Source: Pseudoxanthomonas sp.
GTDB lineage: Bacteria > Pseudomonadota > Gammaproteobacteria > Xanthomonadales > Xanthomonadaceae
DNA: 64,000 nt
Direction: 5' to 3'
NCBI GenBank assembly: GCA_047601245.1
Contig: JASGJU010000002.1
Coordinates: 334,957-398,956 of the forward strand
The notes beneath the pieces are model-generated. The model saw nothing but the letters and a program-made list of their open reading frames with translations, was not told the origin of the DNA and ran no database searches. Below are positions 8,666 through 47,610 of this stretch, piece by piece; the stretch's first letter is position 1; the number at the start of each line of letters is the position of its first letter. Made by a program: the position numbers and the translations under genes.

Positions 8666-8746
8666 GGAGATGGCGCCTGGAGGCAAACCGGCATGATACC
8701 GGGTTGCCCCTATAATTCCGGGCCGTTGCCCAGGACGAACCCCGCC

Positions 8747-9676
8747 ATGACCGCCGACCCGGCCGCCGAACTGCTGACGATCATCGACCTGATCCGCTAC
8801 GGCGCCAGCCGCTTCAACGCCGCCGGGCTGAGCTTCGGCCACAGTCACGACAACGCGCTGGACGAGGCGACGCACATCGTCCTGCACAGCCTGCACCTGC
8901 CGCCGGACCTCGGCCCGGCCTACGGCCAGGCGCGGCTGACCGCGGCGGAAAAGGCGGAAATCCTCGCCCTGTTCCAGCGCCGCATCGACGAGCGCATCCC
9001 CGCCGCCTACCTGACCGGCGAGGCGTGGTTCGCGGGCCTGAGCTTCAAGACCGACAAGCGCGCGCTGGTGCCGCGCTCGCCGATCGCCGAACTGATCGAA
9101 TCCGGCTTCGAACCGTGGCTGGGCGGCCGCGAGGTCAACCGCGCCCTGGACCTGTGCACCGGCTCGGGCTGCATCGCGATCGCCATGGGCCACTACAACC
9201 CCGGCTGGCAGGTCGACGGCGCGGACATCAGCGACGACGCGCTGGCGCTGGCGGGCGAGAACAAGGCCGCGCTGCATGCCGACAACGTGCATTTCCTCAA
9301 GTCGAACCTGTTCGCCGGCCTGACCGGCCGCCACTACGACCTGATCGTCAGCAACCCGCCCTACGTCACCAACGCCGAAACCGATGCGCTGCCGCGGGAG
9401 TATTCCTACGAACCGGAACTGGGCCTGCGCGCCGGCGACGACGGGCTGGACCTGGTGCTGAAGATCCTGCGCGATGCGCCGCTGCACCTGTCGCAGGACG
9501 GCCTGCTGATCTGCGAGGTCGGCGAATCCGAGCGCGCGCTGGCCGCGCTGCTGCCGGACGTCGAGTTCGCCTGGATCGAGTTCAAGGTCGGGCAGATGGG
9601 CGTGTTCGCGGTGGAGTGCGCGGAACTGATCGCCCATAACGCACAAATACGCGAACTGGCGGATGCGCGAGGGTAA
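8747..9676 (+). CDS. prmB: 50S ribosomal protein L3 N5-glutamine methyltransferase
   Basis: [31 protein letters not shown]-like YEPELGL; lies upstream of aroC. Confidence 0.95.
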
Positions 9677-9682
9677 TCCTGC

Positions 9683-9721
9683 TTTTGCTCGTCATTCCCG
9701 CGAAGGCGGGAATCCATGCCG
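9683..9721 (+). repeat. Left inverted repeat containing a CGTC-type REP hairpin
   Basis: TTTTGCT-CGTC-ATTCCCGC-GAAG-GCGGGAAT-CCATGCCG. Confidence 0.9.
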
Positions 9722-9728
9722 GTAAACC

Positions 9729-10019
9729 ATGAAGCAACCCGCTGTTTATATCCTTGCAAATGAAAGAAACGGGACGCTTTACGTTGGCGTCACCAGTGAT
9801 CTGGTTGCCCGCACTTGGCAGCATCGTGAGCACGTCGTCGATGGTTTCACCAAGCGCTACAACGTGACGATGCTGGTTTGGTATGAATTGCATGGCACGA
9901 TGGATTCGGCGATCACGCGGGAAAAGCAGATAAAAAAGTGGAACAGAGCATGGAAATTACGGCTGATCCAGGAAGGCAATCCGCGCTGGCTGGATTTGTG
10001 GGATTCGATAATCGGATAG
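9729..10019 (+). CDS. Small stand-alone GIY-YIG nuclease family protein
   Basis: VYILAN..GTLYVGVT, LVWYE, AITREKQIKKW.R.WK motifs; 96 aa. Confidence 0.93.
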   Translation: MKQPAVYILANERNGTLYVGVTSDLVARTWQHREHVVDGFTKRYNVTMLVWYELHGTMDSAITREKQIKKWNRAWKLRLIQEGNPRWLDLWDSIIG

Positions 10020-10024
10020 ATTGT

Positions 10025-10063
10025 CGGCATGGATCCCCGCCTTCGCGGGGATGACGAGCAAAA
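10025..10063 (-). repeat. Right inverted repeat containing a CGTC-type REP hairpin
   Basis: CGGCATGG-ATCCCCGC-CTTC-GCGGGGAT-GACG-AGCAAAA. Confidence 0.9.
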
Positions 10064-10075
10064 CAAAGGCAAAGT

Positions 10076-11188
10076 GTGAACAGCTTCGGGCATCTTTTCC
10101 GCGTCACCACCTTCGGCGAATCGCATGGGCCGGCGATCGGCTGCGTGATCGACGGCTGCCCGCCGGGACTGGAGATCGCGCCGGAGGAATTCCGCCGCGA
10201 CCTCGACCGCCGCGCCACCGGCAAGACCCGGCATACCTCGGCGCGCAACGAGGCCGACGAGGTCGAAATCCTTTCCGGCGTGTACGAGGGCCGGACCACC
10301 GGCACGCCGATCGCGCTGCTGATCCGCAACACCGACCAGCGCAGCAAGGACTACGCGAAGATCGCCGAGCAGTTCCGACCCGGCCACGCCGATTACAGCT
10401 ACTGGCAGAAGTACGGCATCCGCGACCCGCGCGGCGGCGGGCGCTCGTCGGCGCGCGAGACCACGATGCGCGTGGCCGCCGCCGTCGTCGCGAAGAAATG
10501 GCTGAAGCAGCATTCCGGCATCGAAGTGCGCGGCTATCTGGCGCAACTGGGTGAAATCGCGCCGGATGCGTTCGACTGGAATGTAGTCGAAGACAACCCG
10601 TTCTTCTGGCCCTGCGCCGCACAGGTGCCGGAACTGGAAACCTACATGGATGCGCTGCGCAAGTCCGGCGACTCGGTCGGCGCGCGGGTCAACGTGGTCG
10701 CCGACAATGTGCCGCCGGGCTGGGGCGAGCCGATCTACGGCAAGCTGGACGGCGAACTGGCCGCTGCGCTGATGAGCATCAACGCGGTCAAGGGCGTGGA
10801 GATCGGCGACGGCTTCGCCAGCGTCGCGCAGAAGGGCACCGGACACCGCGACCTGATGACGCCGCAGGGCTTCCTGTCCAACCACGCCGGCGGCATCCTC
10901 GGCGGCATCTCCACCGGCCAGCCCGTCGTCGCCTCGATCGCGCTGAAGCCGACCTCCAGCCTGCGCCTGCCCGGCCGCAGCGTCGACGTCCACGGCAACG
11001 AAATCGAAGTGGTCACCACCGGCCGCCACGACCCTTGCGTCGGCATCCGCGCCACGCCCATAGCGGAAGCGATGGTCGCGCTGGTGCTGATCGACCAGGC
11101 GCTGCGGCATCGCGCGCAATGCGGCGACGTCGGCGACGTCGGGCCGCGGATTCCAGGCAGGGCGTCCCCGGGAAGCGCCGGTGGCTGA
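10076..11188 (+). CDS. aroC: Chorismate synthase
   Basis: [31 protein letters not shown] signatures; GTG start. Confidence 0.97.
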
Positions 11189-16058: not shown

Positions 16059-16108
16059 CTCGTCCTTCCCGCCTTCGCGGGAATGACGAGCCGAAGCGGT
16101 TACGCTTT
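16059..16108 (-). repeat. Solo CGTC-type REP plus 15-bp accessory hairpin
   Basis: 16065-16090 matches the right repeat core (10033-10058) at 23/26 and is followed by AAGCGGTTACGCTTT. Confidence 0.85.
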
Positions 16109-47558: not shown

Positions 47559-47565
47559 AGCCGCT

Positions 47566-47610
47566 ATTCCCGCCTTCGCGGGATTGACGGGCAAAAGCGG
47601 TTACGCTTTT
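47566..47610 (-). repeat. Solo CGTC-type REP plus 15-bp accessory hairpin
   Basis: ATTCCCGC-CTTC-GCGGGATT-GACG then AAAAGCG-GTTA-CGCTTTT; 39/44 identical to 16065-16108. Confidence 0.85.

Follow-up and report, generated by a model that had tools for sequence, protein, structure and literature searches.

Hairpin-forming repeats tagged with the tetranucleotide CGTC belong to the repetitive extragenic palindromic (REP) sequences; their CGTC-1 family corresponds to dRS3 and occurs mostly as head-to-head dimers, and as of 2013 CGTC REPs were without a dedicated protein partner (Di Nocera et al., BMC Genomics 2013;14:522; PMC3733652). This partner is now known to be Ssn, and the Ssn-CGTC pairing that answers the 2013 puzzle was published in 2025, together with the definition of the Neisseria Transformation Sequence (NTS), a hairpin with the 28-nt consensus CGTCATTCCCGCGMAVGCGGGAATCYRG (Chenal et al. 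2025, Nat Commun 16:2388; PMC11893778). Here we describe a stretch of 64,000 nt from a Pseudoxanthomonas species, called the window when its full length is meant, in which a small GIY-YIG nuclease gene, ssn, lies between two inverted hairpins of this kind. The locus is very probably an NTS-ssn-NTS unit, made of an Ssn-family nuclease and its cognate hairpins (NTS/SRM; CGTC-1 REP, or dRS3 in Neisseria). The initial annotation, made from the letters alone, had stated that CGTC REPs were reported to lack a dedicated transposase, a statement that the 2013 paper bears out and that the 2025 work has overtaken.

The reference enzyme is SsnA of Neisseria meningitidis (NMV_0044/NMB0047), a protein of 94 aa assigned to CDD cd10448, and its small GIY-YIG gene family was an outlier in a survey of the homologues of all N. 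meningitidis proteins tested: at least one NTS-type hairpin flanks 71% of the ssnA homologues and 42% have one on both sides (PMC11893778). Purified SsnA binds the NTS as single-stranded DNA (ssDNA) only and cuts it a few nucleotides upstream, with no activity on double-stranded DNA (dsDNA), RNA or the reverse strand (PMC11893778). It reads the stem sequence plus an unpaired C just 3' of the stem, this C being the position most important for binding in Neisseria mutagenesis, and the substitutions Y6A, Y17A and E64A abolish cutting (PMC11893778). SsnA lowers the transformation of N. meningitidis by NTS-bearing DNA, so that the role demonstrated in Neisseria is the restriction of NTS-bearing transforming ssDNA (PMC11893778). 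Four Ssn homologues have been assayed, namely the meningococcal SsnA and three others that cut their own hairpins; the NTS-ssn-NTS layout was already published there, whereas the analogy with RAYT and IS200 appears as a hypothesis of the Discussion only (PMC11893778).

Positions given below are those of the window unless a contig of the genome (C1, C2) is named; G and L numbers designate the genomes and loci of the comparison, G000 being the genome that contains the window. The unit comprises the following features.

9729..10019, plus strand: ssn gene, encoding a 96-aa single-domain GIY-YIG nuclease of the Ssn family (Pfam PF01541, E=6.4e-16)
9683..9730, plus strand: left inverted-repeat arm, with an outer T-rich TTTTGCT, then the NTS hairpin, then the inner tail CCATGCCGGTAAACCAT
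9690..9714, plus strand: NTS/SRM hairpin core CGTCATTCCCGCGAAGGCGGGAATC of the left arm, an exact pattern match
10016..10063, minus strand: right inverted-repeat arm, overlapping the ssn stop codon

The window protein is 76% identical (71/93, E=3e-55) to the 94-aa SsnA orthologue of Neisseria gonorrhoeae, whose locus (L062) came from a scan of species-representative genomes. The gonococcal open reading frame (ORF) carries Y6, Y17 and E64, the residues mutated in PMC11893778, and their equivalents in the window protein, Y7, Y18 and E65, are invariant in an alignment of 17 homologues. When the left hairpin is extended to 9717, 27 of its 28 positions agree with the NTS consensus, and the sole mismatch is the last base, T for G. 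Because of this identity, the conserved Y/Y/E residues and the consensus match, the protein is placed in the Ssn family with canonical NTS arms, and both this assignment and a basic hairpin-cutting activity, which would follow by analogy with the assayed relatives, seem to us highly likely. The Pfam GIY-YIG match spans residues 5-77 of the 96-aa protein, with no second domain found; no NCBIfam model matches it, and a sequence search of the PDB returned spurious summed WD40-repeat matches only, hence no solved relative by sequence.

The window unit shares with the Neisseria family the size (about 95 aa) and the single GIY-YIG domain of its protein, the catalytic Y, Y and E and the NTS consensus hairpin, and its genome shares the NTS-gene-NTS layout and tens of dispersed NTS copies that are mostly intergenic. 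It differs in its host, a Pseudoxanthomonas-type gammaproteobacterium of 68% GC with only about 45 copies as opposed to the hundreds found in pathogenic Neisseria. The copies are here mainly inverted doublets of about 100 bp and collapsed palindromes, whereas in Neisseria they cluster around surface-protein genes. The gonococcal ssnA locus, moreover, lacks the tight inverted hairpin bracket of the window unit. In N. gonorrhoeae DSM 9188 (L062:2300-2960), one minus-strand hairpin lies 134 nt upstream of ssnA and two plus-strand hairpins lie downstream.

The left hairpin begins with the CGTC tag at 9690-9693, continues with an 8-bp stem (9694-9701 with 9706-9713) closed by a GAAG loop, and ends with the conserved post-palindrome C at 9714; its ssDNA fold of -9.5 kcal/mol contains the 8-bp stem ATTCCCGC/GCGGGAAT. 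The NTS core of the right arm lies on the minus strand (10056..10032), and both arms fold as ssDNA into the expected hairpin. A repeat search found the arms (9683-9730 and 10016-10063) to be 48 nt each and 88% complementary, with 37 matches over their outer 39 nt. The two differences between the arms concern stem partners, T9696/A9711 on the left and C/G at minus-strand positions 10050/10035 on the right, and are compensatory, T-A being exchanged for C-G at paired positions of the 8-bp stem. The hairpin structure is under selection, because seven of the eight stem pairs remain 98-100% paired across 120 arms despite TA/CG/AT/GC swaps. The motif occurs four times in the window, both solo copies described below included, versus 0 in 100 shuffles. 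On the gene side, the inner tail of the left arm runs into the ssn start codon, and no target duplication is visible at the arm ends. The initial annotation had described a 96-aa GIY-YIG gene enclosed by 39-bp inverted repeats (37/39), a CGTC-tagged hairpin in each repeat with compensatory T-A versus C-G differences, and no obvious target duplication; all of this stands.

The relation between gene and hairpin was then followed in a sample of 61 relatives and in 80 loci from Pseudomonadota, Chloroflexota, Planctomycetota, Cyanobacteria, Nitrospirota and others. Of the 61 relatives, 37 have 0-4 ssn copies, with pseudogenes among these copies. Scoring the flanks of homologues for inverted CGTC REPs, a check proposed with the initial annotation, gave a clear outcome: a canonical NTS lies within 150 bp on both sides at 54 of the 80 loci, on one side at 18 and on neither at 8, and 15 of the 16 homologues that are at least 65% identical, the closest ones, found in relatives, are tightly bracketed by inverted NTS. 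The co-variation of nuclease and hairpin anticipated at the same time was also found. Arms differ less within a locus than between loci (3.4 versus 6.2 differences, p=2e-4), and protein distance correlates with hairpin distance in a Mantel test (r=0.22, p=0.0015), a correlation of which physical linkage alone would give part. The paralogues encoded by G015, G006 and G036, 53-71% identical, each have their own compensated stem (CCCGC/GCGGG, CCCAGC/GCTGGG, CCCGGC/GCCGGG), and the pairing of clade with variant recurs across genomes; this comparison inside single genomes is the stronger test.

The dispersed copies follow the same pattern. The CCCAGC variant is present in 11-122 dispersed copies in all eight genomes with a verified cognate ssn clade, versus 0-5 copies in the 23 genomes of the genus without it, where it is abundant in none (0/23); the window genome has no copy of it. 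The canonical NTS count has a median of 33 where close-clade ssn is present and of 8 where it is absent (p=0.001), both comparisons being made regardless of phylogeny, with at least two lineages contributing. Taken together, these observations support the view that gene and hairpins form a functional pair and not a chance neighbourhood.

Several ssn paralogues adjoin hairpin arrays of another kind. At L021-L026 (genomes G022, G001, G027, G023, G026 and G019), tandem arrays of a CCAGC variant, all in the same orientation and with a period of about 125 bp, lie next to the gene, and frames of about 450 codons are open throughout such arrays (e.g. L023:1848-2745). More of them occur elsewhere in the same genomes, for instance at G026:C1:3804119-3805126 with a period of about 194 bp. 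An ssn paralogue at L019 / L200 (G044:C7:32929-34010) has on both of its sides arrays in which NTS-like hairpins recur every 35 bp; intact-stem and decayed hairpins alternate there, giving a look superficially like that of CRISPR.

The genome that contains the window measures 3.36 Mb at 68% GC and has a single ssn gene. Among public sequencing runs, only metagenomes sharing about 10% of words matched it, with no run of the strain itself. With up to 4 mismatches allowed, 45 NTS copies are found genome-wide: about 14 inverted doublets of about 100 bp, whose arms are mainly of two types, and 10-11 perfect palindromes that stand alone. At least 38 of the 45 lie outside crudely called coding sequence; this crude map over-calls the 5' ends of ORFs, and three of the seven "genic" copies (534737, 1499800, 2174839) are intergenic in alignments. 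The initial annotation had located solo hairpins at 16065 and 47566, and both were recovered.

16064..16088, minus strand: solo "collapsed" NTS palindrome, a pattern match with 2 mismatches; fold -19.2 kcal/mol, z=-5.4
47565..47589, minus strand: solo NTS copy, its 3' side partly decayed, a pattern match with 2 mismatches; fold -11.4 kcal/mol

In the first of these, the two arms pair through their outer tags (GCTCGTCATTCCCGCGAAGGCGGGAAGGACGAGC), and the post-palindrome C is absent. Solo palindromes look like doublets collapsed across their hairpin cores, and they are present or absent as whole units between G000 and G008. They have no C after the stem; we infer from the Neisseria mutagenesis that they would be poor Ssn sites, because the position most important for binding there is missing.

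Six dispersed doublets, the A type, share the extended arm of the ssn unit (…GGGAATCCATGCC…). The exact extended-arm pattern has seven matches in this genome, two of them on ssn, and 0-3 in other genomes; in G036, G006, G012 and G015 the exact matches are on ssn arms only. An origin of the A-type doublets by internal deletion of the ssn unit was considered and rejected: the 48-nt extended arm is common to both, but no similarity is demonstrable beyond it. Seven B-type doublets carry the arm tail CCAGYGACTTT, which also flanks another ssn clade (L007, L008, L011, L013, L061, L063), itself absent from this genome. Doublets of the same type are homologous from end to end, with interiors averaging 60% identity, versus 36% when shuffled, and arms averaging 88%. 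Interior identity ranges over 53-70% for the A type and 45-73% for the B type, and over 39-63% in G006; the doublets are old. Where the doublet sites can be aligned in the sister species G008 and G010, these show an empty site, half an arm, a solo palindrome that has diverged or a remnant in decay. The module conserved in G006 comprises the hairpin and some 12 nt that follow it 3', with a sharp 5' edge at CGTC that adjoins the published cut position, and the doublet spacers vary in length.

Rare variants (a GCAG loop, a GTAG loop, a C-G stem pair) are common to both arms of the doublets C1:211177/211259, C2:714462/714543 and C2:2174839/2174922, which suggests arm-to-arm homogenisation or the descent of both arms from one template. 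The C-G variant of the right arm of the unit is also found on both arms of the doublet C2:2174839-2174946, and the ssn unit is itself a hybrid of T-A (left arm) and C-G (right arm). Around one B-type doublet, a stretch of 2.9 kb (C2:1861749-1864621, compared with L142) is 96.6% identical between G000 and G008, while other compared stretches are 76-94% identical; the two species may have exchanged it recently. A separate repeat of about 66-97 nt lies inside an NTS doublet of G008 (L144:1570-1672) and has at least six copies in the window genome (C2:15352-15417, 995951-996028, 1352198-1352271, 1776397-1776493, 1998210-1998273 and 2011738-2011803).

The unit is inserted between two genes that are on the same strand as ssn and lie outside the unit.

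8693..9676, plus strand: upstream gene, PrmB-like N5-glutamine methyltransferase (Pfam MTS PF05175, E=6.8e-15)
10076..11188, plus strand: downstream gene aroC, chorismate synthase (Pfam PF01264, E=2.3e-130)

These Pfam matches agree with the placement between prmB and aroC first proposed, and the lower GC noticed with it amounts to 50.5% in the ssn ORF (0.62 at third codon positions, GC3) against 68.5-69% (GC3 0.89-0.91) in the flanking genes. A simple scan of 9500-10200 for promoters and terminators found nothing, leaving both an own promoter and termination at the hairpins unsupported, and for this reason ssn is probably transcribed by read-through from prmB into aroC. At the junction itself (9669-10078), the insert provides prmB with a new TAA stop and aroC with a new GTG start preceded by AAAGG.

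The prmB-aroC synteny is kept in 31 genomes of the genus, of which seven have an ssn unit at the junction and the others 0-167 bp of unrelated sequence. The empty sites whose search had been recommended do exist: G008 and G010, the closest relatives, have an ATGA in which the stop codon of prmB overlaps the start codon of aroC. G028 retains an arm remnant. Over the genus (loci L031-L060), the junction varies between the ATGA overlap, spacers of 5-50 bp, conserved unrelated inserts of 117-167 bp and two ssn subtypes; the latter, recognized by the inner tails CCATGCC and CGCTCTTG, occupy it in different species. To explain the ssn carriers on a tree of PrmB and AroC, at least 4-5 gains or losses are needed. 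The tree of ssn disagrees with the flanks: in G062 the flanking genes share 91-95% identity with their counterparts in G036, G006 and G015 and its Ssn only 73-78%, while this Ssn is 89% identical to that of the distant G030, and a different inner arm tail is common to G062 and G030. In every carrier ssn has a much lower GC3 than its flanks. Because of the gains and losses on the tree, the conflict between ssn and its flanks and the low GC3, the unit must have entered, or been replaced at, the prmB/aroC junction several times. A mosaic test of the flanks gave a weak signal, G000 being, over 100 nt near the junction, equally close to G036 and to its sister G008. Unit and hairpins behave like a semi-selfish cassette that passes horizontally between lineages and is lost and gained again, and in which each ssn clade keeps its own hairpin variant.

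Set beside other hairpin systems, the window hairpins resemble CGTC-1 REPs in their CGTC tag, their GC-rich 8-bp stem and the predominance of head-to-head dimers. RAYT/REPIN and IS200/IS605 elements have in common with the ssn unit a small gene between inverted copies of a hairpin that is also dispersed as doublets, and the RAYT and IS200 proteins, like Ssn, recognize ssDNA hairpins and cut beside them without target-site duplication. The differences are as marked. RAYTs form a covalent intermediate through an HUH tyrosine, whereas Ssn acts by GIY-YIG hydrolysis, an unrelated fold and chemistry; RAYT REPs are tagged GTAG and the window hairpins CGTC; REPIN doublets replicate as near-identical clusters, unlike the doublets described here with their diverged interiors; and ssn, unlike RAYT genes, is patchy, multi-clade and horizontally exchanged. 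The RAYT-like system with a GIY-YIG nickase put forward by the initial annotation therefore holds in part: gene and hairpin form a functional pair in a family of hairpin-directed ssDNA cutters, but the enzyme is not a RAYT, being of the GIY-YIG and not of the HUH-Y1 type. GIY-YIG homing endonucleases of the I-TevI type offer another comparison, since they share with ssn the GIY-YIG core and the appearance of a selfish, low-GC, patchy gene that recurrently occupies a single site. They possess a separate DNA-binding domain and reside in introns, inteins or phages, whereas ssn encodes a single domain of 96 aa and is chromosomal, between prmB and aroC; the characterised Ssn relatives, furthermore, cut only ssDNA and not, as homing endonucleases do, the dsDNA of the empty allele.

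By analogy with SsnA, the window enzyme would recognize its hairpin in ssDNA only, reading the stem sequence and the unpaired C 3' of the stem, and would place its nick on the hairpin strand, a few nucleotides 5' of the tag, while leaving dsDNA, RNA and the opposite strand intact. At this locus the nicks are predicted just beyond the arms, at about 9684-9689 (plus strand) and 10057-10062 (minus strand), and some 43 other NTS copies of the genome would be further targets. Ssn would thereby cut NTS-bearing ssDNA, whether incoming DNA or replication and repair intermediates, and modulate recombination near the marked sites; such cutting and modulation is probably its role. Some points weigh against this picture. 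The cut positions are extrapolated from Neisseria oligonucleotide data, and the role in this organism is drawn by analogy with Neisseria. Genomes rich in canonical NTS exist without ssn, namely G035 (77 copies) and the incomplete assemblies G028 (42) and G008 (31), and hairpins can therefore persist without the nuclease; the proposed correlation of gene presence with copy number is upheld by the medians and by the variant copies, these three genomes being exceptions. Lastly, the same-clade ssn carriers G036, G006, G012 and G015 have no dispersed copies of the extended arm.

Does Ssn also spread the hairpins? The NTS-ssn-NTS unit could be an autonomous element in which nicking by Ssn starts copying to new sites, the doublets and solo palindromes being its non-autonomous derivatives, but we consider this doubtful. 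Such a RAYT/REPIN-like mobiliser, built on a hydrolytic GIY-YIG nuclease with host recombination and repair, is a tentative proposal also raised in the Discussion of PMC11893778. It is favoured by the way in which dispersed variant hairpins follow the cognate ssn clade (8/8 versus 0/23), and by the two copies found in the ssn-less G005 when its sister species have 22-44; the concentration of the extended A-type arm in the window genome (five exact matches beyond the two of ssn, versus 0-3 elsewhere), the empty, half-arm, solo or decayed states of doublet sites in G008 and G010, the full-length homology of same-type doublets (interiors 60% versus 36% shuffled) and the sharp 5' edge of the G006 repeat at CGTC, beside the SsnA cut position, point the same way, as does the movement of the unit between lineages (at least 4-5 gains or losses, conflict with the flanks, GC3 0.62 versus about 0.9). 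No competing transposase is present either: a search of the whole genome for HUH-Y1 proteins (RAYT/IS200, PF01797), with positive controls, found none. The chemistry is less favourable. GIY-YIG enzymes hydrolyse DNA with no covalent intermediate that could serve strand transfer, and rejoining the strands is therefore beyond Ssn alone; as each strand carries one NTS of the unit and SsnA spares the reverse strand, a given single strand would be cut once and not excised. The genomic record has its own difficulties, since no genome contains near-identical ssn paralogues (all are at most 71% identical), old interiors (about 50-60%) with near-perfect arms fit selection on, or conversion of, the arms equally well, NTS-rich genomes without ssn exist and the four other A-type carriers show no arm expansion, while the role demonstrated by experiment is ssDNA restriction during transformation.

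Part of the same evidence can be read with the nuclease playing no part in its own movement. NTS doublets would then pre-exist as portable homology arms, a landing pad into which ssn enters as cargo, or whose interior it replaces, by homologous recombination or together with the flanks, much as in the minimal mobile elements of Neisseria. The occupation of prmB/aroC by two unit subtypes (CCATGCC and CGCTCTTG tails) in different species, the G062 gene, 89% identical to that of G030 between flanks 91-95% identical to the G036/G006/G015 clade, and the conserved arms but variable interiors, in sequence and length, of the doublets are what such exchange would produce, and the equal closeness of G000 to G036 and G008 beside the junction is a weak hint in its favour. 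Arms of about 40 nt offer, however, little length for homologous recombination to be efficient, the mosaic signal in the flanks is weak, and the clade-specific compensated hairpins and the tracking of clades by variants are left unexplained. Cassette exchange fits the history of the junction and not the specificity of the variants, and we judge it improbable. Simple adjacency, in which REP hairpins pile up in intergenic spacers and happen to flank a small unrelated gene, has in its favour a genuine intergenic accumulation (at least 38 of the 45 copies outside crude coding calls). It is effectively refuted by the absence of the motif from shuffled sequence, by the 72 of 80 homologues across phyla with an NTS within 150 bp, most of them showing the inverted arrangement too, by the paralogue-specific hairpin variants and by the outlier status of the gene family in the published survey (PMC11893778); its chance of being right is negligible.

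The reading of the locus as an Ssn nuclease with its cognate hairpins adds a member and not a principle, the pairing of a GIY-YIG nuclease with CGTC hairpins having been published in 2025, RAYT analogy included. The comparative results may be new: hairpins specific to each paralogue, variants that track ssn clades, the repeated occupation of one junction, and doublet, solo and empty states in sister species. They sharpen the question of how the hairpins spread, and of the part of Ssn in it, without settling it. Should the less likely possibility prove true, the hairpin-ssn-hairpin unit would be an autonomous cassette of a mechanistically new class, in which a GIY-YIG ssDNA nickase sets 5' ends on both strands and host replication and repair join them, doublets and palindromes being ORF-less derivatives or decay products and each clade spreading its own variant; a hydrolytic nickase and host replication and repair would then stand in place of an HUH transposase. 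The genus is well suited to this question, with 0-4 ssn paralogues per species, variant copy numbers that track the cognate paralogue and site differences between sister species, and its pairs of paralogue and variant constitute a catalogue of candidate orthogonal specificities of ssDNA cutters and their targets.

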